Origin: Gemmatimonadota bacterium
Lineage (GTDB): Bacteria > Latescibacterota > UBA2968 > GCA-2709665
Assembly (NCBI GenBank): GCA_028873695.1
Contig: JAPPNU010000002.1
Coordinates: 13,728 to 77,727 of the forward strand
Length of the DNA: 64,000 bases
Reading direction: 5' to 3'
The notes below the pieces were generated by a model. It had not been told where the DNA came from. It searched no databases and saw only the letters and a program-made list of their open reading frames with translations. Within the stretch, counting starts at the first letter, position 1, and the number at the start of each line of letters is the position of its first letter. Below are positions 4,365 through 49,229 of this stretch, piece by piece. The translations under genes and the position numbers were made by a program.

Positions 4365-4452
4365 ACGGTAAGTCATTTCTACAACAAATCCCGTTCCCAA
4401 TGGGACCGCCAATCCCGTGACGGATTCAATTGCGATTTCGAAATAATGCACT

Positions 4453-4481
4453 TCGGGCCTGGTCGTTGGGGCCCGATTTTT
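4453..4481 (+). terminator. Intrinsic terminator
   Basis: TCGGGCC/GGCCCGA stem followed by TTTTT. Confidence 0.6.
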
Positions 4482-4634
4482 GTGTTTGTTACGTTCGTTA
4501 TGTATATTGCTGTGTCCAGGTGCACGGAGACGGCTGGTCGCTGGAGTCGTGAATATCGATTGCATCGGTCCCGGGTCTACGGTTATTACGATGGCTCACC
4601 GTATCAGGTGTCGGATGATGCGGGGAAGGGTACT

Positions 4635-24445: not shown

Positions 24446-24638
24446 CCCGCCACCTCCTTTGGTCTCAAGCGCCTTCTCCGGCTTTCCCGTTAGAAGACAA
24501 GATAACATCTGCGTGCCTTTCGGAAAGGACTATCCGATTCCGGGCGGGGACCCTTCGAAGGGCGTTTGCGCGACAATGGCGTTTGCATATATTTCGGTAG
24601 ACTGGGCTGATGACGAACCCTACTCCGGAGGAATTGAA

Positions 24639-25448
24639 ATGGGTATAACGGATGAAGAGAAGTTCAGGTTTGACCTGACGGGATTTCTCGTGCGACCCGC
24701 CATTCTGAGTCAGAGTGAGATTGAACCCATCGTCCGGCAGATCGATCGCATCGTTCACGATCCGGGCGCACTGCCGGCCGAACATCGCACGGTCCCGGGA
24801 GGTCCGTCGAGCGTACTGATCGATCACCCGAAAGTCGTGGAGGTGCTGCACGAGATTATCGGGCCCGAGGTCCGGATGGAAGGCTGTTACTGCGTCTGGC
24901 GAAAAAAAGGTCAGTCCCACGGCGGGGGCCTTCACGGCGGCGGTCCCAGCCAGATCGATCCGATATTCGGATACCGTTGCCAGAACGGGCGGATTCACGC
25001 GGGGATGGTACGCGTGGTCTTCGAGTTGACGGAAGTGCGTCCGGAAGATGGGGGCACGCATTTCATCGCTGGCAGCCATAAGTCGAATTTCGATATGCAT
25101 CCCGATCACCTTTCCATGGAGCCGGGAAAGCGAAGCCCGTTCCTGATGGGGTATGGATGCCCGGCAGGCAGCGCCGTGTTCTTCACGGAGAACGTGTGCC
25201 ACGTTGGACCGGAGTGGACCAGCGACAGTCCGCGCGTCGCCGTGCTGCATGCCTATTCGCACCTGGCAACGCACTGGCACCGGCTGAATGTGCCGCCCGA
25301 CGTACTCGACAGTCTGCCGCGAGAGAAACAGGCCTGGTTTCGCGAGCCGTGGATCGCCGATTTCCGTACCCGGCCGGCAACCCGGAATACACTGGACCAC
25401 TATATGGATTCGCAAGATCCAATGATGCGTACTTCCGTCGGGGATTGA
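24639..25448 (+). CDS. PhyH-like Fe(II)/2OG oxygenase (HxG variant)
   Basis: EKFRFDLTGFLV, LHGGG, DGGTHFIAGSHK, FFTENVCH; GGAGG RBS. Confidence 0.85.
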   Translation: MGITDEEKFRFDLTGFLVRPAILSQSEIEPIVRQIDRIVHDPGALPAEHRTVPGGPSSVLIDHPKVVEVLHEIIGPEVRMEGCYCVWRKKGQSHGGGLHGGGPSQIDPIFGYRCQNGRIHAGMVRVVFELTEVRPEDGGTHFIAGSHKSNFDMHPDHLSMEPGKRSPFLMGYGCPAGSAVFFTENVCHVGPEWTSDSPRVAVLHAYSHLATHWHRLNVPPDVLDSLPREKQAWFREPWIADFRTRPATRNTLDHYMDSQDPMMRTSVGD

Positions 25449-28294: not shown

Positions 28295-28305
28295 GAGAAA
28301 TCGCG

Positions 28306-31287
28306 ATGTGGCAGCTAAGCGTCTCAGGTCTGGGGTCGATGGCAGGGTTGGTTGCAATACCGGGCGTACAGTCTGCGATGATCGACCTGTGGTTCTCGAG
28401 AATCCATATGCTGGTGTTCCTGCTGGTCCTTCCCGCATTTCTTCTGGCTGCGTCCAGGCGCGCGTACGCCGGTCCCCGCACGCTGTACAAAACCGCGGAT
28501 ATCGAAAACGCTCGCCGGAACGTCGCCCGCTTCGATTGGGCGAAGGATATTGTGGGTGGATGGGAAAGAAACGTCGCGCTGGCGATGCAGCAGGACCGCG
28601 CTTTTTTCGATGCGTTGATTCCGGAGTTGACGCCGGGGACCCATTACGGTCAGAACTGTCCCCACTGCGTGGGTACGCTGTCGCTGATGGGTGGGGGACG
28701 GTTCAACTGGAATATCAAGCGGCCTGATGAGATCTCCTGCAGCGCCTGCGGGACGGTTTACCCGAACGCGCGTTATCCGGAAACCGGCGTTCTCGAATGC
28801 CCTCGCATGGGGCAGCGGTTTACGTACTACCAGACGCCAGAGGAAGTGGCCGATCCCGAAAACAGGGCGAAACATGCGCTCAAGTGGCTCGGCGAACGTC
28901 CCACGATGACGAGTTTCACGGGTCAGATTCGGGACCGGAAGGTGGGTTGGGCAACGGGTCAGGCGCTGACCATGGCAAAGTTGTACGCCGTTACCGGCGA
29001 GATCGGTTACGCCGAGCGGGTGGTCTGGATCCTGGACCGGATGGCTCGTGCTTTCCCGAAGTATCTCTACCACTCGTACGATGGCAGCATCGCGGATCTT
29101 CCACCCGCGGAAGTGGCAGCCAATATGGGCGCGGAGGAGTCGGCCGGGGGACCTTCAGGCGGGCGTTTTCCCCCCGGCGCGATCCGCCACGCTTACGACC
29201 TGCACCAGTTCGATACGTATTCCACGATGAACAACGGGTTCTGGGGCGCGGGACGGATGAACGTCCACGGCAAGGGAAGCGATGCCGGCCCGCTCTTCTC
29301 GATGCTCGTCGCGTATGACCTGGTCCGCGAAGCGTCGTACCCGGACGGTCGCCGCGTTCTGGATAACGTCACGGAGCGCCGCATTGTGGATGATCTGATA
29401 CTGGCCGGTTGCACGGATATGGAACACTGGAACTCTCTCTCCAACAAGGGCACCGCCGTCTTTGTATTAAGCGCCGGCGCAGGGATGCTCTTCGGGCAGG
29501 CGGACCGCGTCCGGCACGCGCTGGACGGCTTCCGCCGGATGCTGGATGAGCGCTATCACCACGATGGATTCTACGCCGAGTGTCCGTCCTATTCGGCCCA
29601 CAACCTTTCGAACGTGCACGAACTGGCCGACCTGCTGCATGGGTACAGCGACCCGCCCGGATATGCGCCGGATGAAGGAGAGCGGATCGAGTCTCTGGAT
29701 ATGTTCTCGAGTGGGCGTTTCCATGATTCCCTCGTGTCGCTGGTCAGAATGCTGGCGCCCGGAAACCGGATGCCTGTAATTGGAGATACGAGATACGGTA
29801 CCACTGCGGATGTGCTTTCCCTGGAGGTTCTTGCCGCTCGCGTCGGCGGGCCCTACGCGGGACTGCTGGAGGCTGTTCAGGGCGCGGCATTATCGGAAAG
29901 AGGCAGAGAATACGGGTTGTGGTATCTTCCCCCCGATCTCAGCGTGGATGCCACGGAACTGCCGCTTCGCTCCGAGTGGTTTCCGGGCTGGCACGTGGGA
30001 GTATTGCGCGGCGATCGGGGTGCGAACGATACCGCTCTCTATCTGAACGGCAACGAGCATGAGTGGACGGTGGATACCGGCCATCGGCATCAGGATGTGT
30101 TGAGTCTGAGCCTGTATGCGTTCGGAGAGGAAATGGTATCGGACCGCGGGTATTTTTCCGGCAGCGACCAGCGACTCCCCGACGGCAGGAGCGGGCAGCG
30201 TTGGATGCGGAGCACCCTGTCTCACAATCTCGTGGTTGTCGATGAAGGGGAGCAGGGGCGGAACGAGTGCGGGTCCAATCTGGAGCTTTTCGGTCTGGCG
30301 CCGGGCATCGAGGTCGTGCAGGCTTCGGGGGTAAACGTCTATCCGCAGTGCGACGTCTATCAGCGTCTCTGCGTTATGGTGGATGCTCCTGAGGGTCAGA
30401 CTTATGCCGTTGACATCTTCCGGGTCAGCGGAGGAAAAATCCATCAGTACGGCTTTCAGTGCAACGGAACGCTGGCGGGCGGCGTGCCCGACTTTTCCAC
30501 GTCCGATTCGGTAAGCCTCTCGGATGTCTGGGCCGAGTGGCTTGAGAATCCACGGGCGATTTCACCGGAGAATACAACCGCTATTACATGGCAACATCGG
30601 GGGATAAACCTTGACTTGATGGTGCTCAATACACCGCAACGATTGGTGATCGCCGATGCTCCGGGCTGGCGGGTATTTACGACCGAAGAGTTGAGACAGC
30701 CGGCTATTAACCACGTATTGGCGGAAAATCGCGCTGCTGACGGCGAGAAGTCGATTTCAAGCCAATATGCCGCGTTAATCGTTCCATACGTTTCGGGTAA
30801 TTCGCCGGTGGCAAGTGCGCGATTGATCGAAGACGATCCGGAGTCCGGCGTAGTGGCCATTGAGGTCAAGTTGGACGGCCGAACCGATTACATCATATCC
30901 ACGTTGGACCGGGAGCAGCGCCGCTATGGCCCTGTCAGTCTGGCGGGTCGATTCGGATTTGCATCGGTGGACGAGCAGGGACGCGCCGTCCGGGCGTATC
31001 TGCTGAATGGAACAAAGTTGACCTGCGGCGATCTGTCCATTTCGCTGCCGGCGCCAAGTACGACACTGAACGTCCGATCCGTGAGCGGCCGGACGTTCCT
31101 TCTTTCGGAACCGGTGCCCGATCCCGAGCGCGTTGCCGGCTTCTATCTGCTTGCCGGTGAATCGCCTCAAACGGGTTTCGAGATCGAATCGGCCACTGAA
31201 GACGCGATAACCGTGCGGGATTATTCGGCGATTCCATCCGAAACGCTAACCATATTGAACTCCGGCTGGGCAGGAACGGTGCGTTAA
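28306..31287 (+). CDS. Secreted heparinase II/III-family protein
   Basis: CPHC..CSAC, DGFYAE..SY, GHRHQD, DRGY, SHNLVVVDE, DIFRVSGG; the signal peptide fits a start at ATG 28408, so the start is uncertain. Confidence 0.82.
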   Translation: MWQLSVSGLGSMAGLVAIPGVQSAMIDLWFSRIHMLVFLLVLPAFLLAASRRAYAGPRTLYKTADIENARRNVARFDWAKDIVGGWERNVALAMQQDRAFFDALIPELTPGTHYGQNCPHCVGTLSLMGGGRFNWNIKRPDEISCSACGTVYPNARYPETGVLECPRMGQRFTYYQTPEEVADPENRAKHALKWLGERPTMTSFTGQIRDRKVGWATGQALTMAKLYAVTGEIGYAERVVWILDRMARAFPKYLYHSYDGSIADLPPAEVAANMGAEESAGGPSGGRFPPGAIRHAYDLHQFDTYSTMNNGFWGAGRMNVHGKGSDAGPLFSMLVAYDLVREASYPDGRRVLDNVTERRIVDDLILAGCTDMEHWNSLSNKGTAVFVLSAGAGMLFGQADRVRHALDGFRRMLDERYHHDGFYAECPSYSAHNLSNVHELADLLHGYSDPPGYAPDEGERIESLDMFSSGRFHDSLVSLVRMLAPGNRMPVIGDTRYGTTADVLSLEVLAARVGGPYAGLLEAVQGAALSERGREYGLWYLPPDLSVDATELPLRSEWFPGWHVGVLRGDRGANDTALYLNGNEHEWTVDTGHRHQDVLSLSLYAFGEEMVSDRGYFSGSDQRLPDGRSGQRWMRSTLSHNLVVVDEGEQGRNECGSNLELFGLAPGIEVVQASGVNVYPQCDVYQRLCVMVDAPEGQTYAVDIFRVSGGKIHQYGFQCNGTLAGGVPDFSTSDSVSLSDVWAEWLENPRAISPENTTAITWQHRGINLDLMVLNTPQRLVIADAPGWRVFTTEELRQPAINHVLAENRAADGEKSISSQYAALIVPYVSGNSPVASARLIEDDPESGVVAIEVKLDGRTDYIISTLDREQRRYGPVSLAGRFGFASVDEQGRAVRAYLLNGTKLTCGDLSISLPAPSTTLNVRSVSGRTFLLSEPVPDPERVAGFYLLAGESPQTGFEIESATEDAITVRDYSAIPSETLTILNSGWAGTVR

Positions 31288-36260: not shown

Positions 36261-38990
36261 TTAATTCCCGACTCCGGGCTCGCCGGTTTCGGGAACCGCG
36301 TCCTCCTGATGTTCGGGGAGCGCGAACACGATGCGCTGGCTCATCCAAACGGGGACGGGCTTGCCACCGATCTCGGCAGGTTTGAACCGGAATTGACTAA
36401 CTGCATCAATCGCCGGTTGGCGGAATACCTCATCGCCCTTCAACACCTTTGCGTCGCTGACGGATCCGTCTAAATTGATCTTGAATTTCAGGAAGACGTT
36501 GCCTGTCAACCCTGCCTTTTTTGCGTGATCCGGATATACCGGCCGTACGGTACTCAAGTTCACGTTGACAGGTTTCACGTCGACGTCCCAGAACTCGAAG
36601 ACCTTGTCATTGCCAATTTCGCTTCTGTCGGTAGACGCTTCGTCCTGGTGTTCTGAGGGCGCGAACGCAAAATGGTGTGTCATCCGCACTGCGACGGCCT
36701 CGCCATCGTGTTCAGCTGGTCTGTAAAGGAACTGTTTAACCGCAACGATCGCAGGTTTACGAAATATCTCACCGCCCTTCAGGACAAATGCGTCTACGTC
36801 GCTCACGGTACCATCCACGTTGACCTTGAACTTCAAGGCCACGTCTCCCGCCAGGCCTGCTTCTTTCGCGATGTCGGGGTAAACCGGTTGAACTGAATGA
36901 ATGACGACGGGCTTTGCGTCTACCGACCGCAACTCAAACACATTCTCGCTGGCGGCGTCGCCTGCGCCGGGAGACGAAGTGGACATCGGTTTGGGCGGGC
37001 TGAAACTGATCCGGTGCGTCATCCACACTGGCACAGGCTTGCCATCACGTTCCCCTGGTTGGAACCTGAATTGTGAAATGGCATCAATGGCAGATTTTAC
37101 AAATACCGATCGACCATTGCCGACACGTACGTCGGTCACTGATCCATCCACGTTGACTTTGAACTTCAAGCTCACAACTCCCTTGTCCCCCCCGGTAAAT
37201 CGTGCCCATTCGGGATAGACCGGTGGAACGGAATGTATGACGATTGGCTTTACGTCTACCGACGAAATATCAAACACCTTCTCACCGTCGGCATCGCTTG
37301 AGTCAGGAGGCGGCATGGCCTTTGGTTTGGGTCGCCCAAACCTGATCACGTGCGTCATCCACACGGGGACAGGCTCGCCGTCCTGCTGGGCAGGTGCGAA
37401 CCGAAATTTGGAAATGGCAATGATCGCGTCTTCGTGAAATACCGCCTTGCCTTTCACGACTTTGATGTGGCTTGTCGTTCCATCTACGTTTACGACAAAT
37501 CTCAAGAACACGTTTCCGACTTCACCCGCTTTTCGCGCCCTTTCGGGATAAACTGATTCAACATGATTTTTTAGTACCGGTTTGACGTCGACCGACCAGA
37601 ATTCCAAGACGTTGTCTGGTTCAGAAGAGAAGCGAACGGGTGTTGACAAGGATACCGGCACGACTCTTCCCTCGTGTACCGCCGGCCTGAAACGCCACTG
37701 TAGTACAGCATCCGAAGCGGCTTTGTGAAATATCTCAGGTCCTTTCAGGACGGCCACCTCGCTGACCGAACCGTCGACATTGACGATAATCTTCAGGAGC
37801 AAATCACCTTCTATTTTGCCACTACGTGCTTCTTCAGGGTATTCGGGTCCGATAATCTTAAGGGGATGTGGTTTCTCGTCGACCTCCTCTATGTCGTATA
37901 CGACGGAGACAACCTCGTTACTGTCAACATGACCAGATGCAGACTCGGCGGTTTGGGGTTTTGCAGGACTCGCGGTCTCGTCGAGTACGGCCGAATTTGA
38001 CGACTGAGGTCCACGTTCATCCTGCGTATATGCCTCTCGGATCGAGAACGGCACGATCGCCAGTCCGACGAGAACGAGCGCAGCCAACTTCCGTTTCGAA
38101 CGCTTCATATCAACCTCCTTGAAATTGAGGACGTGCTCGAGTCGTTTCCTCAACGTCGTTCCCCGGTCCGAGAAAAACACGGTCAGCGCGCGGGGCGCCA
38201 ATCTCCTGTCGACAAATCCCAGCAGCAGACGTCCGTATTCGGCAGGTGTCAGCCTGGTTTCGCGTAAAACCGCTTCGTCGCAGCGCAGTTCCCGGATCAA
38301 CATCAGGCGGCGGTTCAACAGCCAGACCAGCGGGTTTACGCCAAAAAGAGCCGTTGCGATGGCTTGCAGAATGAGGACGTGAATGTCGCGTTTTTCAAAA
38401 TGCGCCAGTTCGTGCCTGACGACGCCTTGCAGCTCTTCGGGCGACCAGGAAGACCACTTCGAGGGCAAGATCAGGCGTGGCCGTGTCAGACCCACCAGTA
38501 CGGGAGATGGCAAGTCTGCCTTGGAATAGACATCCAGGTTGCGGGGCGCATTCAGTGAGGGAACTTCGCTTGCCAGATCCACCGGGTTTGCCGATCTCAG
38601 CGTACGTCGGAAGGCCGCGTTCTTCCACAGCGCCACCCCGGTCCAGACCGATACTGAGAGAATCCAGACGCAGAACAGATAGAACGCGAGCGGAAAGGGG
38701 TTCGCTGGTCCAGGCGAGACAGCGACAGCGTCGGATACCACTCCGGAATAGACGGCCGCCTCCACTGCGACACCCGGTGGAGAATCCAGAAACGAGGGTA
38801 TCGGAATGGCAAGAACCGGCGGTACAAACACCTTCGCCAGCGCAAGCAGATAAAGCGTGTATCGAAACCGCGTCTCAAGCGTCAGCCACCGGTCCAACAC
38901 CCACACCAGAACAATGAAAAGCGAGATCTCGACCATGTGTACCGCGTAGAGGGGCAGCCACGTTTCGGCCAGATTGATTAAGGCGTTCAT
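36261..38990 (-). CDS. BlaR1/MecR1-type M56 metallopeptidase fused to five TonB C-terminal domains
   Basis: TM helices, SP...G..RP.L.LP, HELAH, NPLVW, RELRCDE; five YP..A...G.V.L...VN.DG...F.PA...G..V.V repeats. Confidence 0.92.
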   Translation of the reverse strand: MNALINLAETWLPLYAVHMVEISLFIVLVWVLDRWLTLETRFRYTLYLLALAKVFVPPVLAIPIPSFLDSPPGVAVEAAVYSGVVSDAVAVSPGPANPFPLAFYLFCVWILSVSVWTGVALWKNAAFRRTLRSANPVDLASEVPSLNAPRNLDVYSKADLPSPVLVGLTRPRLILPSKWSSWSPEELQGVVRHELAHFEKRDIHVLILQAIATALFGVNPLVWLLNRRLMLIRELRCDEAVLRETRLTPAEYGRLLLGFVDRRLAPRALTVFFSDRGTTLRKRLEHVLNFKEVDMKRSKRKLAALVLVGLAIVPFSIREAYTQDERGPQSSNSAVLDETASPAKPQTAESASGHVDSNEVVSVVYDIEEVDEKPHPLKIIGPEYPEEARSGKIEGDLLLKIIVNVDGSVSEVAVLKGPEIFHKAASDAVLQWRFRPAVHEGRVVPVSLSTPVRFSSEPDNVLEFWSVDVKPVLKNHVESVYPERARKAGEVGNVFLRFVVNVDGTTSHIKVVKGKAVFHEDAIIAISKFRFAPAQQDGEPVPVWMTHVIRFGRPKPKAMPPPDSSDADGEKVFDISSVDVKPIVIHSVPPVYPEWARFTGGDKGVVSLKFKVNVDGSVTDVRVGNGRSVFVKSAIDAISQFRFQPGERDGKPVPVWMTHRISFSPPKPMSTSSPGAGDAASENVFELRSVDAKPVVIHSVQPVYPDIAKEAGLAGDVALKFKVNVDGTVSDVDAFVLKGGEIFRKPAIVAVKQFLYRPAEHDGEAVAVRMTHHFAFAPSEHQDEASTDRSEIGNDKVFEFWDVDVKPVNVNLSTVRPVYPDHAKKAGLTGNVFLKFKINLDGSVSDAKVLKGDEVFRQPAIDAVSQFRFKPAEIGGKPVPVWMSQRIVFALPEHQEDAVPETGEPGVGN

Positions 38991-39385
38991 TCCGGACCTC
39001 CTTCCTTCGTTTTCTCCCGTTCCTCGATCAATGCGCGCAATTCATCCAGTTCTTGCTTCGAAAGCTCGCCCGAATCCACGAGATATGTCGCCAGGGCGCC
39101 AAAGGAGCCCTCGAACATCCGCGACACCAGGGTTCGCGTTTCAGCCTTTGCGACGTCTTCCCTCGACACCGCCGGGTTGTACACATTGACCGGGCCGATC
39201 TTTTCCCGATCCAGCACGCCTTTTTCGGACAGGATATTCATGATCGTCTGCACGGTCGTGTATGCCTTCTCGCCGTTGGGATAGAGGCGATTTACAACGT
39301 CCCGAACGGTGACCTGACGTTCGAACTGCCAGACGCCGTCCATCACCTCCCACTCGACCTCGGCCAGCCTGCGTTTTTTGGCCAT
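38987..39385 (-). CDS. BlaI/MecI/CopY family repressor
   Basis: EWEVM..VW, AYTTVQTIM..L..KG, FEGS; ATGA overlap with the M56 gene. Confidence 0.95.
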   Translation of the reverse strand: MAKKRRLAEVEWEVMDGVWQFERQVTVRDVVNRLYPNGEKAYTTVQTIMNILSEKGVLDREKIGPVNVYNPAVSREDVAKAETRTLVSRMFEGSFGALATYLVDSGELSKQELDELRALIEEREKTKEGGPE

Positions 39386-39466
39386 AAAAATTTCCTTTCG
39401 TCTTTGCCGCATTTCCAGTCGTCAAACGCGATTGTGCGTTCTGTTCCGCGGTTGGTTGTCGACCGG

Positions 39467-39776: not shown

Positions 39777-40102
39777 ATGCCGGGGCAATTTAGCGGAAAA
39801 AGGGTAAACTATCGGGTGGTACCCGTAATAGGTACAATGCGACGATTCGTCGTCAGCAAATCGACTCGAGGTGGCGTGGATTCCGCTATATGGATCCTGA
39901 AAGCAGTACTATTCACAATATCCGCCGCACGATGTGAATCGCGTCAAAGGTGTGTCTGGACTTCGATTTGCGGCCGTCGTATATTTCGTCTTCCGCCGCC
40001 GATCGCGGGTCGGTGTGACGTTGGCGTTTGTCGTCGGGCGGACGTGCGTTTGGCGTTTTGGGACGGGACGTGATCTTTCCGCCCGCTGCCGGAGTACCTG
40101 GA

Positions 40103-43100
40103 ATGTCGAATAAGGATCTCACAAGACGGGAGTTTCTGCGAGGCGCCGGAATGGGAACGATGGTTCTGGCAGCGGGATGCGATCCGGCTATATGGAGGAG
40201 CGATATGGGGATCGAACGTATCGACTGTTCGAGAGAATCGCGGTACTGGGAAGGTGAACGGCCGTTTCCCAGAGGCGTGGCGCACCCGCTGTTCTATACC
40301 CGGGAGCAGATCGAGCGCGCCCGGCGGCGAGTGGAATCGTACGGCTGGGCGAAGCAGTTCCGGGATGCGCGCCTACGTTGGATTGCCCGCCGGGGGATTC
40401 TGGAGATGCCGGACGACGTGATACGCGCGGGTATTTCCGAGCAGGTCAACTTTCCGCTTCCTCGCTGTCCCGTGGACCGCCGCAAGCGAAGCTGGCGGAT
40501 CCATTTCTGGCAGTGGACTCCCGAGGATCCGGGCCAGGTCAAATGCAAAATCTGCGGAAATGTGTTCCCGGGACCGGAGCATCAGCCCGTGGGAGAGGTC
40601 GAAGTGGTCGGACCCGCCGGCGGTACGGTCCGGTACCGGTATTGGGAGGATGAAGAGGGGATGCGGTATTTTTTCGAAAATATGCTGCTGAACTACACCC
40701 AGTACCAGATGGTCCGAATGGCGGATCCCCTGGCGATGGCTTACGTCTTTACGGAAGAGGCAGCGTACGCGGAAAAGGCCGCTGTGATTCTGGATCGGCT
40801 GTCACAAGTCTACAAGAACTACCCGGTACACGGTTTGGGCCGGTCGTATCTTCACGCCGACCGAAAGGGTTTTTACGAGAACCACTTCTACAAGGATCCG
40901 CCGTTCCCATTTGTTTCCGCTCGCATGGGGAATTTCCACGCCAGCCCCTTTTCAGACGCGAGCAACGCGTTCCGACTCGCCCAGGTTTACGACCTGATTG
41001 CCGACAGCGGCGCGATCGAGAAACGCTCCGAGGCCGAGGGCCGGGACGTGCGCGCGGCAATCGAGCGGGACCTGCTGTACGAGGCGATTCGGCATACGCT
41101 GGAGGTCCCCCATGGTTCCACGAATTACGACGGTGGGAGGATCAACGGGCTGGCCCTCGTCGGGCGAGTCCTGGACGAGGCGGATTTCGTGGCGGAAGCG
41201 TATGGGCTGTATCGGACGTTGATCGATAACTGTTACAATTACGACGGGTACTGGCACGAGGATACGGTGAATTATTTCAATATGATCACCAGCGGAACGC
41301 TGCGCGTGCCTGACGTCATCAGTGGGCCGGGCGGCATCGACGTCTATGGAGAGATGCCGTTTCTGCAGCGGATCTTTACGGCGCCGATGGGTTTGTTTAT
41401 GCCGGACGGACGCACGTTCATGGCCAACGATACGTGGGGGATCAGTACGGGTTTCGCCCGCGTTTCGAGCCGGATTGCATCGATGGGCAAATTCGTGGAG
41501 GCGGCGGATGAAATCAGGGGTACCTCGCGGATTCCGGTGGCCGACGTGGAATATGCGCTGTTTCGACGGACTTCGGAAGCCGACAGGCGCGTCACGGAGG
41601 AGGACCTGCTGGCGCTGGTGCCATCGAACTATCTGCTGCCGGGTGCGGGCGATGTCATCCTGGGAGTCGGGAGGACATCAAAAGCCATTCGGGCGACGTT
41701 GTGTTACGGTCCCTGGGGCGGGCACCACCATTACGATACGCTCGCGATGGGCATGGACGTCTTCGGTCAGGAATTGCTCTCGGACATTGGATATACCCAT
41801 ACCCGTTACCGGGAGTGGGCGACGACGGTTGGCAGCCACAATACCGTGGTCGTCGACGGGCAGGAGCAGACACGGGACAGCGGGCGGCTGCGATGCTATC
41901 GTCCGGCGTCTCCCACGCGGACGGGGATCGTCTGTGCGGAGGCCCCGGGCGCGTTCGAGAATACGGAAGTCTATCGCCGGACGATGATGCTGGTTCCAAC
42001 GGGGCCCGAGAGCGGGTACGTGGTGGACATGTTCGAGGTGAAGGGCGGGAACGTGCACGACTATCTGCTGCACGGATCGGCCGATTTCGATCAGACGCTC
42101 TCGGCGGCGCCCGACCTGAGCCCGGCGGAAGGCGAGATGATATTGAGCGGCGACGGGACCCGCGGCGCGCTTTACGGATATTTTCATCGTACGCGGGGGA
42201 CGAACGTATCCGAAGACTTCAAGGTCCGGTTCGAAGGAGAGGGCACGTTCGTTGATGTCAGGTTCGCCGGCGTCCAGGCGGGTCGATTGCTGGTCAGCGA
42301 GGCGCCGTCCATCCGACGGACGCGGGAGGATGACGGCAAGCTGGACGAATTCTGGCTTCGTACGGTCTGTCTACGGCACAGAAACGATTCCAGTCTGTTC
42401 GTATCCGTCATAGAGGCGCATACCGGTACAGGCGTTGTCAAAGATGCAAGGGTGGTGGCGCGGGACGGGTCCGGGGTGGTGCTGCGGGTGGAGGAAACCG
42501 GCAGGGTCCGGACCATTGCGATGGATCCCGAAGGCGCGGGCCTGGTCGCGAGCCTGCCGGATGGAAGGCGCCTCGAACTCAGGGGGCGGGCGGGCGTGAT
42601 GAGCGAGTCCTCGTCGGACGTCGACCTCGACGTGATAGACGGGTCGGCATTACGCGTGGGCGAAGCGGAGGTTCATCGGACTCGCGACTACGTTGGGACG
42701 GTAACCGGGCTGGCTGGGGATATCTCAGGGGAACCGGGGCGCAGCGAACTCGTGCTTGACGTTGCATTGCCGGAAGATGGATCGCTGGACGGCAAGGTGG
42801 TCTACGTCCGGCATCCATCGGGACTGGAAACGGTATACATGGCGAAGCGAATCGTACGCGAGGCCGGCCGCAGCCGCGTCTTCCTCGCCGGTATGCCCCG
42901 TTTTGTCAGGGGCAGGGGCGAGGTGACGTCCGGAAAGCGATCCAGGTTCGACAGCAAGGTCGATCACCCGAAAGAAGGGGCGTATCCGGGATGCCGGCTA
43001 CGGATCGGGGACCGGGTGTTCACGATTCGTAGAGTGCGACGTCGCAAGGCTTTTTTCGTAGAGGAAACGTTTGATTTTTCGAAGGTTATCGGCGCGACAT

Positions 43101-43150
43101 TCGAAGTGTATTCAACGGCCGTTGGCGATACCGTCAGAATTGTGGCGTAG
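40103..43150 (+). CDS. Tat-exported (lipo)protein, heparinase II/III family
   Basis: TRREFL Tat motif and LAAGC lipobox; CPVD..CKIC; DGYWHE, GHHHYD, DIGY, SHNTVVVDG, DMFEVKGG. Confidence 0.85.
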   Translation: MSNKDLTRREFLRGAGMGTMVLAAGCDPAIWRSDMGIERIDCSRESRYWEGERPFPRGVAHPLFYTREQIERARRRVESYGWAKQFRDARLRWIARRGILEMPDDVIRAGISEQVNFPLPRCPVDRRKRSWRIHFWQWTPEDPGQVKCKICGNVFPGPEHQPVGEVEVVGPAGGTVRYRYWEDEEGMRYFFENMLLNYTQYQMVRMADPLAMAYVFTEEAAYAEKAAVILDRLSQVYKNYPVHGLGRSYLHADRKGFYENHFYKDPPFPFVSARMGNFHASPFSDASNAFRLAQVYDLIADSGAIEKRSEAEGRDVRAAIERDLLYEAIRHTLEVPHGSTNYDGGRINGLALVGRVLDEADFVAEAYGLYRTLIDNCYNYDGYWHEDTVNYFNMITSGTLRVPDVISGPGGIDVYGEMPFLQRIFTAPMGLFMPDGRTFMANDTWGISTGFARVSSRIASMGKFVEAADEIRGTSRIPVADVEYALFRRTSEADRRVTEEDLLALVPSNYLLPGAGDVILGVGRTSKAIRATLCYGPWGGHHHYDTLAMGMDVFGQELLSDIGYTHTRYREWATTVGSHNTVVVDGQEQTRDSGRLRCYRPASPTRTGIVCAEAPGAFENTEVYRRTMMLVPTGPESGYVVDMFEVKGGNVHDYLLHGSADFDQTLSAAPDLSPAEGEMILSGDGTRGALYGYFHRTRGTNVSEDFKVRFEGEGTFVDVRFAGVQAGRLLVSEAPSIRRTREDDGKLDEFWLRTVCLRHRNDSSLFVSVIEAHTGTGVVKDARVVARDGSGVVLRVEETGRVRTIAMDPEGAGLVASLPDGRRLELRGRAGVMSESSSDVDLDVIDGSALRVGEAEVHRTRDYVGTVTGLAGDISGEPGRSELVLDVALPEDGSLDGKVVYVRHPSGLETVYMAKRIVREAGRSRVFLAGMPRFVRGRGEVTSGKRSRFDSKVDHPKEGAYPGCRLRIGDRVFTIRRVRRRKAFFVEETFDFSKVIGATFEVYSTAVGDTVRIVA

Positions 43151-43293: not shown

Positions 43294-44025
43294 TCAGCTT
43301 CCCTCTTCCTCTTCGGCGTAGGCATGCCCGCCCATGATTGCCCGGACTTCGACGGCTGAAGAGGCTCTCAGCAGGGCGCCCATACGCTCCTCCTCTTCCT
43401 TCTGCAGGGCACTCACGTTGTTGAGCACGGGCTCCAGTTTGTCGGCGGGAAACTTGCAGGCGCCGTTCTCGTCCATATGGATGATTTCGCCCGGCGCCAC
43501 GTCCATGCCGCCTACGGAAACCGGCACATTCACCGCGTGAACGGCCATGCCTCCGTGCCCTGCCGTGACCCCGCTGAGCATGTACTGAAATTTCATGGGT
43601 CGGATCTCGTCAATGTCCCTGGACGGCCCGTTGGAGATGGCGCCCACGCACCCGACGGCCTTCATCGCAGAGGTCATGTTTCCACCCGCCAGCCCGACCT
43701 TTGCCGCGAGTTCAGGCGGGAATTTCTGCTGGAAGACGAGGACGCTGGGTTTCGGTGAAGCGTCCAGCGCGTCGATCACGTCCATAAATGACAGAGAGTT
43801 GTAATCCGGATCGGGCAGTCCGAAGACGCACGTCACCGCGTAACCCACCGTGCGGCCCAGTTCGGGATACATGCAACGGATGGATTGGTCCGTGTACCAG
43901 TTTTCCGTCCAGGGATTGTAGAGACTCAGGCAGAGCGGGTTGCCCGGATACGTGGCCACGACGTTCGTGATCGAGGGGGTGTCGAAGTTCTTCAGTTCGT
44001 CCAGCATCTCCTGAGCGGTCGTCAT
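43294..44025 (-). CDS. RraA/HMG-aldolase family protein
   Basis: DTPSITN, GYAVT, GGNM, GAISNGPSRD, VGGMDVAPGEIIHMDENG. Confidence 0.88.
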   Translation of the reverse strand: MTTAQEMLDELKNFDTPSITNVVATYPGNPLCLSLYNPWTENWYTDQSIRCMYPELGRTVGYAVTCVFGLPDPDYNSLSFMDVIDALDASPKPSVLVFQQKFPPELAAKVGLAGGNMTSAMKAVGCVGAISNGPSRDIDEIRPMKFQYMLSGVTAGHGGMAVHAVNVPVSVGGMDVAPGEIIHMDENGACKFPADKLEPVLNNVSALQKEEEERMGALLRASSAVEVRAIMGGHAYAEEEEGS

Positions 44026-44103: not shown

Positions 44104-44925
44104 TTAATCCTGCGGTTCTCGAGGCAGGAGTTGCTGCGGCTGTACGATCCGGCGCCGTTGCGGCGTCAACCTCTGCAGGAGTTCGGGTGACGGTTGGTAG
44201 CCGTGACGGAAGTTGCCCCACGAAGGCCCGTACCGGTAGACAACCACGCGTCGGGTACCCGGGTTGGACCGCCGGGCGGACCCATGTGAGATACCGTCTA
44301 CGAACAGGAGCGCATCCCCGGCCGCCATATGAATTTCGATGGCGCCCTCGATGCCTTCGACGGTTGCATTTCGGGACATCCGGTGTCTGTCGAAGTGCGG
44401 GTGTTTGAAGTTGGATTTGTGGCTTCCGGGTATGACCATTGTGCCTCCGTCGCCGGGACCGACGTCGGTCAGTGCCATAAGGATGTTGATCTGGCCGCAC
44501 ATGAAGCGCCCGCCATGGTAGCGAAACTGGTTCCTCAGTATGGGCGGAAATCCACCGGAATGCAGCCCGATGGCTTCGCCGGGCTCGCGAAAATTGGCGA
44601 AATTCTCGTCGATGAACAGGGGACCGTGGTGGTAGTCGAAACTGCCCTCGCCTCCCACAAAGTGCTTCACCCTTTCGAACCAGGAAGGATGATCGATCAG
44701 GTTCTCGAAGGGCCGCCCGGCTTCATAGATCTGCTGGAGGTTCAGTCCGGAGGTGTCGTCGCCGTACGTGTGGGCATGAATGCGGCCGTGCCATTCCCCG
44801 GGCGCGAGTGGGGGGATCTCATCCAGGCAGGCATTGAGTTCGCCGACTTCTTCGCTGGAGAGCGCGTTTTCGAGATGTAGATAACCGCGAAGGTCGAACA
44901 GGTACGTTTCCAGGTCGGTATCCAT
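44104..44925 (-). CDS. PhyH-like Fe(II)/2OG enzyme (HSG variant)
   Basis: YLFDLRGYL, LHSGG, DGGTMVIPGSHK, LFVDGISHG, RRVVVYRY. Confidence 0.88.
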   Translation of the reverse strand: MDTDLETYLFDLRGYLHLENALSSEEVGELNACLDEIPPLAPGEWHGRIHAHTYGDDTSGLNLQQIYEAGRPFENLIDHPSWFERVKHFVGGEGSFDYHHGPLFIDENFANFREPGEAIGLHSGGFPPILRNQFRYHGGRFMCGQINILMALTDVGPGDGGTMVIPGSHKSNFKHPHFDRHRMSRNATVEGIEGAIEIHMAAGDALLFVDGISHGSARRSNPGTRRVVVYRYGPSWGNFRHGYQPSPELLQRLTPQRRRIVQPQQLLPREPQD

Positions 44926-45022
44926 GGGTGTCCCTATGGAGTGTATTGATACCCGGCGAGGGAACGCCGTCGCTGGTCGATCGGATCAGACTTGGCGCGC
45001 CGTGAGGACGATAGGGCTTCCT

Positions 45023-45886
45023 TCAGCGTTCGATGCGGACGTTTCCACTGTCATCCACGGCAAGGAACGGAACTTCGCCGCGGTGGTTGGAGTAGGGCCC
45101 GAACATGACCGCGCGCTGCTCATCGGTCATTTCCGCCACGACGTCTTCGCCCCAGTAGATTTCAGGGGACGCCAGGTCCTGTGCGGGACCGCCCCTAACG
45201 CATGACCTCGCGGCGTACTTGAAGAGGATGGAGCGGCGGGGACGTTGGCTCTGCCACGGGCGAGTCCCATGGGTCTGCGCGCCGTCCATGAAGAAGAGGA
45301 CGTCTCCGGCCCCAAGGGCCGGCTGAACGACGGTACCCATATCGTCGTCACAGGTACGCACGCCCGGGGGCATCTGATATCCCGATTTGTGGCTTCCCGG
45401 AACGCAGACGAAGCCGCCGTCACCGGGATTCACGTCGGCGAGTTGCCAGCTCACCGTGACACCCCCGCAGTAGGATTGACCGTTCTGATGGTTGTAGGCG
45501 ACCTGGGGCCTGTGCGGTTCGCCCGAACCGTGCATGGTAAGGCCCTCGGTGCCTTTCACGCCGGCAATCAGCAGCGGACCGTGATCCAGGCGAAAACCGC
45601 TGCCGCACATCGCGTTCAGACGGGAAACGACGGCGGGGTGGACCAGCATCCGCCGGAACGGCTCGCAATGCGGGCGTTCCATTTCGAGCAGACCGTGCAT
45701 GGTTGGACGGCCGGTTCCCCTCAGCGAGTGCGAGTCGCCCGCTCCGAGATTGTCGTCGGCTATCCGCATCCGGTCCTGGTGCAGGTCGATGGCTTCGTTC
45801 GCGGCGAGGAGTTCCCCGGAAGCGAGTACCCGGCGGGCAACCAGGTAGCCGGTGAGATCCCACAGGTAGCGTTCCTCTGCGTTCAT
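45023..45886 (-). CDS. PhyH-like Fe(II)/2OG enzyme (HGS variant)
   Basis: YLWDLTGYL, MHGSG, DGGFVCVPGSHK, FFMDGAQTHG, RRSILFKY. Confidence 0.88.
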   Translation of the reverse strand: MNAEERYLWDLTGYLVARRVLASGELLAANEAIDLHQDRMRIADDNLGAGDSHSLRGTGRPTMHGLLEMERPHCEPFRRMLVHPAVVSRLNAMCGSGFRLDHGPLLIAGVKGTEGLTMHGSGEPHRPQVAYNHQNGQSYCGGVTVSWQLADVNPGDGGFVCVPGSHKSGYQMPPGVRTCDDDMGTVVQPALGAGDVLFFMDGAQTHGTRPWQSQRPRRSILFKYAARSCVRGGPAQDLASPEIYWGEDVVAEMTDEQRAVMFGPYSNHRGEVPFLAVDDSGNVRIER

Positions 45887-45929
45887 GGTTTTCTCCGGGC
45901 GCGTGTGTCTTGCCTTTGGTTGGGTTTGC

Positions 45930-46805
45930 TCAGACGATCCAGGTCTTTTCGCCGTCCGAATCCAGCCGGGGAAAGTCATTACCGGTATGGACGCCCGGTC
46001 CGTAGAGAACGGCCCTTTGTTCGGGGCTGAGGTCCCGGACCCAGTCTCCCCAGCGGGCCTCCGGCGTAAAATGACGCCCCGTTGCGCGGGCGGCGGCTCG
46101 AGAAGCGTATTTGTAGAGTACGGATCGTCGTTCGTGTTCGCCCGTCCAGGGCAGGGTGCCGTGCGTGGCGGATTCGGCGAAAAACAGGACGTCGCCCGCG
46201 TCCATAACAGGCTGCACAATCAGGTCCACGTGGTCTTCGACGGACCGGACGCCCGCCGGGGTGGGTTCGCGTGTCTTGTGGCTTCCTGGTACGATACAGA
46301 AGCCGCCGTCGCCTTCGTTGACATCCGTCAATTGCCAGGCTACCGTGACGCCCCTGCAGTACATCCTGCCGTTCTGCTGGTGGTACCACACGGAAGGACT
46401 GAAAGGTTCGCCCGCGCCGTGCAACCGGTGGCCTTCGGCCCCGGCATCGGCGCCAATTAACAGGGGGCCATGGTCCAGCCGGAAGCCCTTTCCGGACATT
46501 TCATTCAAACGCGAGACCACAACGGGATGGACAAGCAGCCGGCGAAATGGCTCCCTGTAGGTCGCCGGCCAGCCCAGCATCCCCGTGAGTTCCTTTCGTC
46601 CCTGCGCGCCTTGCAGGGCGGATGACCCGCCGGCGAGGCTGGCGGCATCGACGGAGCGTGTGGAGACGCGTTCCGTGAAGTGATCGATGGCGGCATTGCA
46701 TTCGGCGACCTCGTCGGACGTGAGCGCGTTGCGTACGACCAGGTATCCGCGCAGGTCGAAGAAGTATCGTTCTTCAGCTGACATTTCATATTTTCTCGCG
46801 CCCAT
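45930..46805 (-). CDS. PhyH-like Fe(II)/2OG enzyme (HGA variant)
   Basis: YFFDLRGYL, LHGAG, DGGFCIVPGSHK, FFAESATHG, RRSVLYKY. Confidence 0.88.
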   Translation of the reverse strand: MGARKYEMSAEERYFFDLRGYLVVRNALTSDEVAECNAAIDHFTERVSTRSVDAASLAGGSSALQGAQGRKELTGMLGWPATYREPFRRLLVHPVVVSRLNEMSGKGFRLDHGPLLIGADAGAEGHRLHGAGEPFSPSVWYHQQNGRMYCRGVTVAWQLTDVNEGDGGFCIVPGSHKTREPTPAGVRSVEDHVDLIVQPVMDAGDVLFFAESATHGTLPWTGEHERRSVLYKYASRAAARATGRHFTPEARWGDWVRDLSPEQRAVLYGPGVHTGNDFPRLDSDGEKTWIV

Positions 46806-46843: not shown

Positions 46844-47839
46844 CTACGAAGCGCTGGGTTCCGGCCCCCGCCGGCGCGTCTCCCGCTCCGCCTTCCAGTC
46901 CGCCATCACTTCGGCGGTCCGGCGCAGAAGTTGCTCATCCTTTTCAGTTCGGATCTGGTGCGGGTTGTTGCCCGTCCAGTTGTAATAGCCATTCCCCGAT
47001 TCCAGGCCCGTTGCGCCAGTGGCGACCAGCTTCTGAAGATATGCGAGCGGCTGCTCCCACCCGCCGAGGGTCTTCCACAGGTGGGAGGCGACGCGGACGT
47101 GCATGGACAGGCCGTTGATGTCGCGTTGCTCCAGCGGACCCGCGGTGGTGAATCTGGGCGCCAGTCCCAGCCGGAAGGCAGCGTCGATGTCCTCTGCTGA
47201 AGCGACACCGGACGCCAGAAGATCGACGGCCTCTCGGATGAGGGCATGCTGAAGTCGGTTGACGAGGAATCCGGGTACGTCTTTGTTTACACGAAGTGGA
47301 AAACAGCCCAGCCGCTGCCAGATTCCGGTGACACGGTCCATCGTCTCGTTCGAGGTCTGTCGGCCGCGGACGATTTCGGCTACGGGGACGACGTGGGCCG
47401 GCTGGACGAAATGAGAGCCGGCAATGCGATCCATGTGCCGGGCTTTTTCCGCGAGCCTGGTAATGGGCAGTCCGGACGTATTGCTGACAAGGGGCGCATC
47501 TCTTGTCGCGAGGGCGTCCAGGCGATGGAAGAGCGCCTGTTTGGACGCCAGGTCTTCCGTGATGGATTCCACGACAAAGACGGATTCGCCCACAGCGGCC
47601 TCCAGGTCCGTCGTGGTGTGGATGCGTTTGAGAACGGTGTCTGGAGATTCACCTCGAAGCCGGTTGTGCCGCCCGAGATCCCGTGCGTACCGTTCAAGAT
47701 TTCTTCGGGCATTGGCCAGGCTTTCCGGCCGGCGGCTGATCAGCCAGGTTTCCCGGCTTCCGAGCGCCAGAACCAAAGCGATCTGACCGCCCATAAGACC
47801 GGCGCCGACAACGGTGGACTTGCCCAGGAAAAGGTCCAT
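46844..47839 (-). CDS. 3-hydroxyacyl-CoA dehydrogenase family protein
   Basis: GAGLMG, VVESITEDL..K, SNTSG, GSHF..P, PGFLVNRLQ. Confidence 0.9.
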   Translation of the reverse strand: MDLFLGKSTVVGAGLMGGQIALVLALGSRETWLISRRPESLANARRNLERYARDLGRHNRLRGESPDTVLKRIHTTTDLEAAVGESVFVVESITEDLASKQALFHRLDALATRDAPLVSNTSGLPITRLAEKARHMDRIAGSHFVQPAHVVPVAEIVRGRQTSNETMDRVTGIWQRLGCFPLRVNKDVPGFLVNRLQHALIREAVDLLASGVASAEDIDAAFRLGLAPRFTTAGPLEQRDINGLSMHVRVASHLWKTLGGWEQPLAYLQKLVATGATGLESGNGYYNWTGNNPHQIRTEKDEQLLRRTAEVMADWKAERETRRRGPEPSAS

Positions 47840-47933: not shown

Positions 47934-49229
47934 CTACAGATCGACGCGAACCCGCTGGAGGGCTGTTTCAGCGACCTCCAGCGTCCGGTCGATATCCTCT
48001 TCGGTGTGGACCAGCGAGAAATAGAGCTTGCCGCCAGGATTGAAGAAGATGCCCCGTTTTATCATTTCGATGCCGAACTGTCTGGCGGCGCCGGCGTCGG
48101 CCTTGAGCGTGTCGGCGTAGTTTCGGATTTCGACGTCCGTGAAATAGGGCTGCAACACCGGACCTTCACCCAGGACCTGGAGCGGCAGTCCCATCTTTGC
48201 GCCAAGCGCTTCCAGGCCGTGTCCGAGGCGGGCGGGGACGTCGTAGAGCCTCTTATAGACGCCCTCGGTTTCCAGTACGTCCAACGTTGCCAGTCCGGCG
48301 GCGGCGCTGACGGGATTGCCATTCGTCGTGCCGCTCACGAAGGTGTACGGCGCACTTCCCTTGCGGCGGGGGTCGGCGCACGCGAGAACATCCGCGCGCC
48401 CGCACACTGCGGCCATGGGGTAACCGCCGCTGATTGTCTTTCCATAGACGGCAACGTCGGGAACAACGCCGTAGCGCTCCTGTGCGCCGCCCCAGGCGAT
48501 GCGGAAGCCGGTAACGACTTCATCGAAAACGAGGATGACGCCGTGATCGATTGAGGCCTGGCGGACGGCCTCAAGGAAGCCCGGTTCGGGCCGAAGGGTG
48601 CGCTGTAAGGGTTCAACGATAACGGCCGCGAGGTCGTCCGCATAGGATTCGATCAGCTCTACGGCGGCGTCGGCCTTGTTGAAGGGGGCAACCAGAACCG
48701 ACCGACCGACGGCTTTCGGTATTCCCTGGGAGTCCGGGACAGCCACGGGTCCGTCCGTGGGACCTGGGGGTGTCGTGCTTTGCTGGGCGTAATCGTGCGC
48801 GCCGTGCCAGCCGCCCTCGAATTTGAGGATCTTTTCCCGGCCCGTGAATGCCCGCGCCATTCGCAGGGCCGAGAACGTGCCCTCGGTGCCCGATGACGTG
48901 AAGCGGATGGACTCCCCGCAGGGCGAGGCTTCGACAATGCGCCCGGCCAGGTGGATGACGGGCTCATTGAGGGCATAGAAGGTTGAACCCAGCGCAACCT
49001 GGCGCTGAACGGCCTCGACAACCGCGGGATGGGCGTGACCCAGAATGAGCGGTCCGGAACCGAGGATGTAGTCTACGTATTCCCCGCCGTCGGTGTCGTA
49101 GATCCGGCAGCCGTTTCCACGCCGGATCACGGTTGCGACTTCGTCCGGCATCCGAAAGCTGCCGAGACAGCCGCCTGCAAGGTACCGGTCGGCCTTTTCG
49201 AGCAGATCGCGCATCGGCTGGTGTTCCAT
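47934..49229 (-). CDS. Class III aminotransferase (GSA-aminomutase-like)
   Basis: GPLILGH, SSGTEG, GGWHG, FDEVVTGFR, YGKTISGG, SGTTNGNP. Confidence 0.9.
   Translation of the reverse strand: MEHQPMRDLLEKADRYLAGGCLGSFRMPDEVATVIRRGNGCRIYDTDGGEYVDYILGSGPLILGHAHPAVVEAVQRQVALGSTFYALNEPVIHLAGRIVEASPCGESIRFTSSGTEGTFSALRMARAFTGREKILKFEGGWHGAHDYAQQSTTPPGPTDGPVAVPDSQGIPKAVGRSVLVAPFNKADAAVELIESYADDLAAVIVEPLQRTLRPEPGFLEAVRQASIDHGVILVFDEVVTGFRIAWGGAQERYGVVPDVAVYGKTISGGYPMAAVCGRADVLACADPRRKGSAPYTFVSGTTNGNPVSAAAGLATLDVLETEGVYKRLYDVPARLGHGLEALGAKMGLPLQVLGEGPVLQPYFTDVEIRNYADTLKADAGAARQFGIEMIKRGIFFNPGGKLYFSLVHTEEDIDRTLEVAETALQRVRVDL

Follow-up and report, generated by a model that had tools for sequence, protein, structure and literature searches.

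Three adjacent genes of the PhyH family of Fe(II)/2-oxoglutarate (2OG) oxygenases, here called A, B and C, lie on the minus strand of the window, the 64,000-nucleotide stretch of bacterial DNA under analysis. Gene A (P0001; 44104..44925) encodes 273 aa and is of the HygX type discussed below, gene B (P0002 minus its first residue; 45023..45886) encodes 287 aa, and gene C (P0003; 45930..46805) encodes 291 aa. Family membership follows from the translations and from Pfam, where PhyH (PF05721) is matched at 73.3 bits by A, 37.9 bits by B and 58.9 bits by C against a gathering cut-off of 22, spanning positions 1-213, 2-212 and 1-212, respectively, of the 213 in the profile. B and C are 51% identical (BLASTP) and A and C 30% (pairwise). 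The list of open reading frames gives B as 398 aa from a TTG codon, overlapping C; the ATG at 45886, with the stop at 45023, is the likely start because the N-terminus MNAEERYLWDL is conserved and GGAG is found upstream. The ATG of C is preceded by AGGAGG at 5 nt.

All three proteins carry an HxA/HxG-type replacement of the HxD/E motif, namely HSG in A, HGS in B and HGA in C. The translations contain GLHSGG, PGSHKS, FVDGISHGS and GTRRV (A), TMHGSG, PGSHKS, FMDGAQTHGT and RPRRS (B), and RLHGAG, PGSHKT, FAESATHGT and HERRS (C). By residue, these correspond to proximal His122-Ser-Gly124, GSHK167-170, Asp210-x3-His214 and Arg225/226 in A (alignment A2), to His120-Gly-Ser122, GSHK, Asp202-x4-His207 and Arg218/219 in B (P0002 numbering), and to His129-Gly-Ala131, GSHK174-177, Glu211-x3-His215 and Arg226/227 in C. 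The 2OG-binding arginine stands about 11 residues past the distal histidine (R225, R218 and R226), and neither this arginine nor the distal histidine varies in alignments A1 and A2. The spacing between the acid and the distal histidine is one residue longer in B than in A and C (D-x4-H versus x3), and in the BLASTP alignment Asp202 of B falls on Glu211 of C and is followed by a gap of one residue. The codons of these proposed relocated iron ligands lie, on the minus strand, at 44296..44298 (Asp210 of A, computed from the start at 44925), 45284..45286 (Asp202 of B, P0002 numbering, -5 register) and 46173..46175 (Glu211 of C, conserved and aligned with the HygX Glu). The translations reproduce exactly what the initial annotation had read from the DNA: LHSGG, MHGSG and LHGAG at the HxD position, GSHK, a distal His and a downstream Arg in all three, and an Asp or Glu 4-5 residues before the distal His (FVDGISH, FMDGAQTH, FAESATH). 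The downstream Arg belongs in each case to an Arg-Arg pair.

The neighbouring genes run in the same direction. Downstream of A, and probably in the same operon, is an RraA/aldolase-like gene (43294..44025, minus strand; Pfam RraA-like, 72.8 bits) with a likely ATG at 44025 and GGAGG upstream; its weak NCBIfam matches are to 4-carboxy-4-hydroxy-2-oxoadipate aldolase/oxaloacetate decarboxylase (45 bits versus a cut-off of 179). Upstream of C, across a 38-nt gap, is a gene of the 3-hydroxyacyl-CoA dehydrogenase family (46844..47839, minus strand; Pfam 3HCDH_N 152 bits and 3HCDH 55 bits), for which every NCBIfam match is under cut-off. Beyond it lies a class-III aminotransferase resembling glutamate-1-semialdehyde aminomutase (47934..49229, minus strand; likely start Met at 49229), with Aminotran_3 at 187 bits in Pfam and PRK00062 at 359 bits versus a cut-off of 398 in NCBIfam. 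In NCBIfam, neither A, B and C nor the genes around them score above the cut-off of any family.

The order heparinase-like gene, RraA-like gene, A, B, C, 3-hydroxyacyl-CoA dehydrogenase, transaminase, sulfatase is kept within the genus, in 10/10 short and 4/4 long loci, where the transaminase entries denote synteny of the DNA only and not protein identity. The RraA-like gene adjoins A in all ten same-genus loci, and the dehydrogenase-family gene is syntenic in all four extended ones. Five genomes of other genera carry the A orthologue apart from B, C and these neighbours, so the operon is young and its synteny is weak functional evidence. An O-methyltransferase is among the co-directional neighbours at the relatives' loci. 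Speculatively, and with low confidence, these neighbours, together with the many sulfatases and heparinase-like genes of the region, suggest that a small polar metabolite derived from a sugar or an amine is oxidized step by step.

In the homologues of these proteins, absence of the acid at the proximal motif goes with presence of an acid near the distal histidine, a pattern that is not due to chance. Among the 120 matches listed for homologues of C, Glu occupies the -4 position relative to the distal His in 120/120, and D/E is found at His+2 in none, the residue there being Ala, Gly, Ser or, once, Gln. For A, the 58 cluster representatives that span both motifs all lack D/E at His+2; 45 of them show the pattern H ... 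D/E ... H, the remaining 13 having odd letters in a motif column that mark them as fragments or misaligned. The column of Asp210 of A is D/E in 30/30 family members of alignment A2. A same-genus orthologue of B reads MHGAG, with Ala where B has Ser at His+2, and its FMDGAQTH is identical.

This arrangement has a structurally characterized counterpart. HygX is the Fe/2OG oxygenase of Streptomyces hygroscopicus that forms the orthoester of hygromycin B (PDB 4XC9, 4XCA, 4XCB, 4ZPI), and it is the only solved member of the relocated-carboxylate subgroup. A section of a 2026 review gives its iron triad as 'H-X-G ... E-X3-H', in which the acid has changed position and Gly stands where it used to be, and reports that HygX turns hygromycin C into hygromycin B in vitro (PMC13374393). 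When the family profile (alignment A2; 30 members, 275 positions) is searched against all PDB sequences, HygX is the best match at 102 bits (E 3e-28, profile positions 8-235 of 275), followed by EctD at 56.8 bits and human PhyH at 55.8 bits. In the alignment LHsgg stands against LHGGN, PGSHKsnfp against QGSHKANFP and FaEalTHG against LNEALMHG, so that the conserved acid falls on the Glu of LNEALMH; phmmer with C alone gives the same Glu-Glu pairing. HygX and A, B and C share the PhyH-type fold and an N-terminal Y-x-FD-x-x-G-[FY]-L, and HygX shares with the family an LHGG-type proximal motif in which a small residue replaces Asp/Glu, as well as GSHK and the downstream Arg. Its acid, four residues ahead of the distal His, is matched by A and C; B has D-x4-H rather than E-x3-H. 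A and C accordingly combine the small His+2 residue with the Glu/Asp-x3-His that together define the HygX type, B being a one-residue variant, and no solved structure with the -5 register of B was found.

The relationship is specific but distant. Identity to HygX is low (20-24%), and Lys137 of HygX, the proposed filler of the gap left by Gly, is Asn in A, Thr in B and Thr154 in C (invariant in alignment A1), so the active sites of A, B and C differ from that of HygX. Their neighbourhood lacks an aminoglycoside cluster, unlike the setting of HygX. An AlphaFold2 model of C (pLDDT 86.3, pTM 0.88) retrieves HygX chains at all of ranks 1-10 in Foldseek (E 1e-15 to 1e-13). In VIA-align the best HygX chain reaches Z 19.8 at rank 27, in a tie with AndA and PrhA at 20.6; the fold therefore cannot tell members of the PhyH superfamily apart, and the specific link to HygX rests on sequence. 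The 50 entries that VIA-align listed include no halogenase chain, which carries no weight either way.

Taken with the conservation above, this places A, B and C very probably among the cytoplasmic Fe(II)/2OG oxygenases of the PhyH superfamily, in the HygX subgroup with a relocated carboxylate, for which halogenation is not expected. In the proposed site, the carboxylate of the triad would no longer stand at proximal His+2, which is occupied by a small residue (Gly, Ala or Ser), and the Asp or Glu that closes the strand immediately preceding the distal His would supply it instead (A, D210-x3-H214; B, D202-x4-H207; C, E211-x3-H215). Ligation by this acid is predicted from its conservation and from an alignment to HygX at 20-24% identity, least surely for B with its -5 register. 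2OG would bind the iron in bidentate fashion, with the conserved Arg-Arg pair anchoring its C5 carboxylate. Two histidines, one carboxylate and bidentate 2OG would leave a single iron site, for O2, and with that site taken no halogenation would be anticipated. The enzymes would be expected to hydroxylate their substrates or to carry out an oxidation akin to hydroxylation, such as a HygX-style oxidative cyclization.

Fe/2OG halogenases, by contrast, bind iron via two histidines only, and the initial annotation had offered two alternatives for the locus, a cluster of free-standing radical halogenases or a PhyH subfamily with a relocated carboxylate. For the three genes to be free-standing radical halogenases, chloride or bromide would have to bind in the space left open by the small His+2 residue, with the nearby acid playing no part in holding the iron. 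The HxG/S/A at the proximal His is indeed shared with the carrier-dependent SyrB2 and CytC3 and with the free-standing WelO5 and BesD, and the DNA is probably of sponge-symbiont origin, the only sequencing run that fully contains it being labelled a sponge metagenome; sponges are rich in halogenated metabolites. No RNA run was listed among those that contain the DNA. SyrB2 and CytC3 also belong to the same broad cupin/PhyH-like superfamily, but they score only 26.8 and 26.5 bits with the A2 profile versus 102 for HygX, and the halogenases differ from A, B and C in that the latter have, at -4 or -5, a conserved substitute acid that aligns with the HygX Glu, a comparison made at the level of sequence. 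The NCBIfam model for chlorinating enzymes (TIGR01762, cut-off 226.3) gives 15.6 bits for A, 11.6 for C and no match for B; across the whole genome it has 23 matches, the best at 38.9 bits, every one of them in a canonical HxD paralogue. WelO5 and BesD are absent from the results of every search run. The Ser in B and the drift among Ala, Gly and Ser at His+2 suggest that a small residue is needed there rather than a tuned halide pocket, and the neighbours are of catabolic type, with carrier proteins and NRPS/PKS absent from the neighbourhood by Pfam. Halogenation by these three enzymes is thus very unlikely: the relocated-carboxylate half of the earlier proposal gains from the HygX profile match, the position of the acid on the HygX Glu and its invariance, and the halogenase half loses with the scores of TIGR01762, SyrB2 and CytC3.

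The HxG motif alone is not diagnostic of halogenation, because human aspartate/asparagine beta-hydroxylase (AspH) hydroxylates with an HXG...H motif (PMC12816917, in the portion of that article that treats it); a halogenase-annotation study likewise states, in one of its parts, that searches for HXA/G motifs yield false positives (PMC13519999). AspH, which has no substitute carboxylate, is a member of another 2OG-oxygenase family and is absent from the PDB searches with the C sequence and with the A2 profile. Its example nevertheless raises the prospect that A, B and C are two-His hydroxylases, with iron held by the histidine pair and the acid serving in the second sphere or in substrate binding. 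The shifted register of the acid in B would fit such a site, as would P0274 (contig C53, 23469-25052), a paralogue of the same clade that reads HGG ... YPGTTTH, has an acid at neither position and is yet kept at 96-97% in 11 same-genus genomes, which implies that this fold can accommodate an iron site of two histidines. Against this stand HygX, the closest solved relative, whose triad includes the relocated acid in the account given by the review section cited above, and the Glu found in 120/120 listed homologues of C, as expected of a ligand; a two-His hydroxylase is improbable here. A gene family this large (77 matches in the genome) could also hold redundant copies, and A, B and C might be decayed or non-catalytic paralogues. 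However, neither histidine has been lost, nor has GSHK, the Arg-Arg pair or the acid; the window copies are free of stops and frameshifts, synteny is kept within the genus, and an orthologue of A occurs in 29/31 related genomes (its own counted) at 75-95% identity, which makes decay scarcely credible. With the substitute acid conserved at the position of the iron-binding Glu of HygX, the likeliest identity of A, B and C is that of ordinary oxygenases, of a variant type already known, rather than halogenases.

The PhyH matches number 77 in the 5.28-Mb genome. The iron site is canonical in 59 of them and lacks HxD/E in 18, and among the latter D/E stands at -4 in 13, Asp at -5 through a one-residue insertion in four, and neither in one. 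An acid at -4 is found in just 1/59 canonical copies; another 13 have Asp at -5 in a different register (FFDxxxxH), where it is presumably not a ligand. The 77 paralogues are related, so these counts do not represent independent events. In a quick maximum-likelihood tree (LG+G4), the non-HxD label needs two changes, and 17 of the 18 non-canonical copies cluster together, at a deep node that is weak in this quick search (SH-aLRT 69). Close homologues of C carry the name Candidatus Poribacteria, and a study of poribacterial genomes reports that PhyH outnumbers every other Pfam domain in them, at >1.9% of genes and mostly of unknown function (Kamke et al. 2014, PMC3909097). The passages of that paper on the expansion do not mention a split between canonical and HygX-type iron sites such as is seen in the present genome, and no published description of a non-canonical site in about a quarter of such an expansion was found in the literature searched. 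The ESM Atlas returned generic PhyH clusters only.

The iron site of A, B and C is most likely a known variant, found here in uncharacterized enzymes of a probable sponge symbiont. The initial annotation had held that either of its alternatives would be uncharacterized chemistry; for the relocated carboxylate this is wrong, given the HygX structures and in vitro activity. By the standard for novelty set in the initial annotation, a characterized homologue does exist in HygX, though at 20-24% identity it is a distant one. HxG/HxA at the proximal His is a widely used flag for Fe/2OG halogenases, and the present locus is a clear case in which it misleads, since the carboxylate has probably been moved, as in HygX, and not lost. 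The occurrence of the non-canonical site in about a quarter (18/77) of the PhyH expansion is useful for annotation and for the choice of targets. On sequence grounds the acid-less P0274 would be a better candidate than A, B or C for a two-His site or a halogenase, and would be the preferable object of a search for halogenases.

A wider and unlikely extension is that the HygX-type clade, 17 of the 77 copies, forms a reservoir of oxygenases that carry out reactions other than hydroxylation on sponge-derived sugars or amines, some being free-standing halogenases of a new lineage. Were this so, the clade might yield oxidative cyclization as in HygX, or the formation of C-O or C-X bonds, and members with a shifted acid (B, D-x4-H) or no acid (P0274) might possess a true two-His iron site that accepts halide.

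Recurring among the neighbours of 14 other non-canonical paralogues, at 13 loci, are GFO/IDH/MocA oxidoreductases, sulfatases, a heparinase-like gene, DUF6785/6784 proteins, PALP enzymes, GNAT proteins and aminotransferases; this list covers non-canonical paralogues only, and recurrence in it does not mean enrichment. A fourth HygX-type PhyH paralogue lies within the window on the plus strand (24639..25448; motifs LHGGG, AGSHKS and FFTENVCH, and Pfam), its approximate start being taken as Met61 of an ORF opening at 24459. A heparinase II/III-like gene adjoins it.

The genes A (44104-44925, minus strand, 273 aa), B (45023-45886, minus strand, 287 aa from its ATG) and C (45930-46805, minus strand, 291 aa) are neighbouring members of the PhyH family of Fe/2OG oxygenases, with Pfam PhyH scores of 73.3, 37.9 and 58.9 bits, respectively, all above the 22-bit cut-off. 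B and C share 51% identity, and A and C 30%. The longest reading frame of B spans 398 aa from a TTG start overlapping C; its start was placed at 45886 on the basis of the conserved N-terminus and a GGAG. Translation yields GLHSGG, PGSHKS, FVDGISHGS and GTRRV for A, TMHGSG, PGSHKS, FMDGAQTHGT and RPRRS for B, and RLHGAG, PGSHKT, FAESATHGT and HERRS for C. The motifs reported at 44104-46805 in the initial annotation, with no carboxylate in the proximal HxD position and an Asp or Glu shortly before the distal His, are thus correct in every detail.

A ligand relocated to four or five residues before the distal His (-4/-5) predicts a small, drifting residue two positions after the proximal His (His+2) together with a fixed acid, and this is the pattern seen. 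Among the 120 homologues of C listed out of 555 with E ≤ 1e-5 (59-92% identity), His+2 is never Asp or Glu but Ala, Gly or Ser, with a single Gln; the proximal His is absent from one, and -4 is Glu in all 120. The acid column is likewise Asp or Glu in 30/30 sequences of an alignment of diverse family members. For A, 58 of the best 150 cluster representatives cover both motifs; none has Asp or Glu at His+2, 45 show the order H ... D/E ... H, and the other 13, being fragments or misaligned, carry unexpected letters in one of the motif columns. A B orthologue in one same-genus genome reads MHGAG in place of MHGSG, with FMDGAQTH identical.

The closest solved relative is HygX. It is the top match of C in a phmmer search of all PDB sequences (E 2e-7), with FAESATHGT opposite LNEALMHGT, Glu on Glu. 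A profile of the 30 diverse members matches HygX at 102 bits (E 3e-28) over nearly the full protein length, pairing LHsgg with LHGGN, PGSHK with QGSHK and FaEalTHG with LNEALMHG; the next-best scores are 56.8 bits for EctD and 55.8 for human PhyH. With the AF2 structure predicted for C (pLDDT 86.3, pTM 0.88) as query, Foldseek lists HygX chains at all of ranks 1-10. VIA-align places HygX at rank 27 (Z 19.8), tied with AndA and PrhA (Z 20.6), so the specific link to HygX rests on sequence rather than fold. A passage of a 2026 review gives the HygX triad as H-X-G ... E-X3-H, the acid relocated and a glycine in its former place, calls it "reminiscent" of halogenases, and reports that HygX makes hygromycin B from hygromycin C in vitro (PMC13374393). 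Lys137 of HygX is replaced by Thr in B and C and by Asn in A in the alignments, and the mechanistic proposal specific to HygX therefore need not apply here.

In the most likely iron site, the proximal His, the distal His and the relocated Asp/Glu would form the facial triad, the acid being a probable ligand in A and C and a less certain one in B. 2OG would bind the iron in bidentate fashion, held by the Arg-Arg pair, and O2 would take the single remaining site. Such an arrangement would imply hydroxylation or a similar oxidation rather than halogenation. The initial annotation had offered free-standing radical halogenases as one reading, which finds no support: the NCBIfam chlorinating-enzyme model (cut-off 226.3 bits) scores A at 15.6 and C at 11.6 bits and does not match B, and the family profile reaches SyrB2 and CytC3 at only 26.8 and 26.5 bits. 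Genome-wide, the model's best score is 38.9 bits and its 23 matches are all canonical HxD paralogues, with 0/18 non-canonical paralogues (without HxD/E) matched. Nor does HxG alone signify halogenation, since AspH is described as a hydroxylase with HXG...H (PMC12816917) and part of a halogenase-annotation study warns of false positives from HXA/G motif searches (PMC13519999). The other reading, a relocated carboxylate, is supported by the HygX alignment and the fixed acid; its supposed novelty is not, as this ligand arrangement is known from HygX. A, B and C are new, uncharacterised enzymes of this known kind.

P0274, a 528-aa protein of two PhyH-like halves encoded outside the window (contig C53:23469-25052; locus L026:4152-5735), is by its motifs a stronger candidate than A, B or C for halogenase-like or AspH-like chemistry. 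It belongs to the B/C clade, and its C-terminal half retains LHGG, PGSHKA and RERR; in IMYPGTTTHG, there is no acid at -4 or -5. The acid-less state recurs in 12/12 same-genus copies, own genome counted (the 11 others at 96-97% identity), in seven database clusters with identity down to 67%, and in two more distant two-domain relatives, suggesting a two-His-only site that is stable across relatives.

The genome (5.28 Mb, 80 contigs) holds 77 PhyH matches, and a joint alignment finds HxD/E in 59 and not in 18. Among these 18, Asp/Glu stands at -4 in 13, Asp at -5 in four of the B type (FMDGxQxH, with a one-residue insertion), and neither in one. In the canonical set of 59, an acid at -4 occurs once, and 13 further copies have Asp at -5 in another register (FFDxxxxH). 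A quick ML tree groups 17/18 non-canonical copies together at a weak node (SH-aLRT 69; subclades 97 and 82), gives a five-member clade including B and C a support of 99, and requires two changes of the iron-motif label. As the paralogues are kin, these counts amount to one or two evolutionary events rather than 17. A non-HxD paralogue at C1:55728-56300 (YWHSGEE ... NDCCFH) lies inside a canonical HxD clade, adjoining a canonical copy, and is a second, independent iron-motif change. Some C homologues are named Candidatus Poribacteria; part of one study reports that no Pfam domain is more abundant in poribacterial genomes than PhyH, whose functions are mostly unknown (PMC3909097). The sole sequencing run with a full DNA match is labelled sponge metagenome.

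C, B and A lie in a co-directional run with gaps of 38-97 nt, preceded by a class-III transaminase (GSA-aminomutase-like) and a 3-hydroxyacyl-CoA-dehydrogenase-family gene and followed by an RraA-like gene; a 1040-aa heparinase II/III-like protein and a sulfatase flank it. From these neighbours, a small polar, sugar- or amine-derived substrate is tentatively proposed. The block is kept within the genus in 10/10 short and 4/4 long loci, the transaminase by DNA synteny only. The A-B gap is 97 nt here (44926-45022), about 1 kb in 8/9 short same-genus loci and 4/4 long ones, and roughly 0.7 kb in locus L003. In the one same-genus genome examined inside the gap, a 329-aa O-methyltransferase (PF00891 plus dimerisation domain) fills it at L016:9126-10115; given the short gap here, this gene appears to have been lost here or gained in relatives. 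A is present in 29/31 related genomes, own genome counted, and in five genomes of other genera it stands apart from B, C and the run neighbours.

The window contains five PhyH genes, three heparinase-like genes, two sulfatases and one FGE-type sulfatase maturase. The fourth HygX-type PhyH gene (about 24639-25448, plus strand; LHGGG ... FFTENVCH) and a canonical one (25551-26456, plus strand; WHTDW, with IEDSHVA instead of the family PGSH[KR]) lie beside the 858-aa heparinase-like gene (21932-24508, minus strand). This protein and those of 1013 aa (28246-31284, plus strand) and 1040 aa (40028-43150, plus strand) each have a weak heparinase II/III C-terminal match (35-45 bits) as sole Pfam match, and at least one carries a twin-arginine-like signal, RREFLRGAG. 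In this genome, PhyH genes have DUF6785 + DUF6784 proteins as neighbours at three loci (window 4446-6599, plus strand; L024:8280-10262; L029:1863-3851). In a 909-aa protein (36261-38990, minus strand), five TonB C-terminal domains are fused to a BlaR1-type M56 peptidase domain, and its gene adjoins a BlaI/penicillinase-repressor gene (38987-39412, minus strand). Extra tblastn pieces suggest that the number of repeats differs among relatives.
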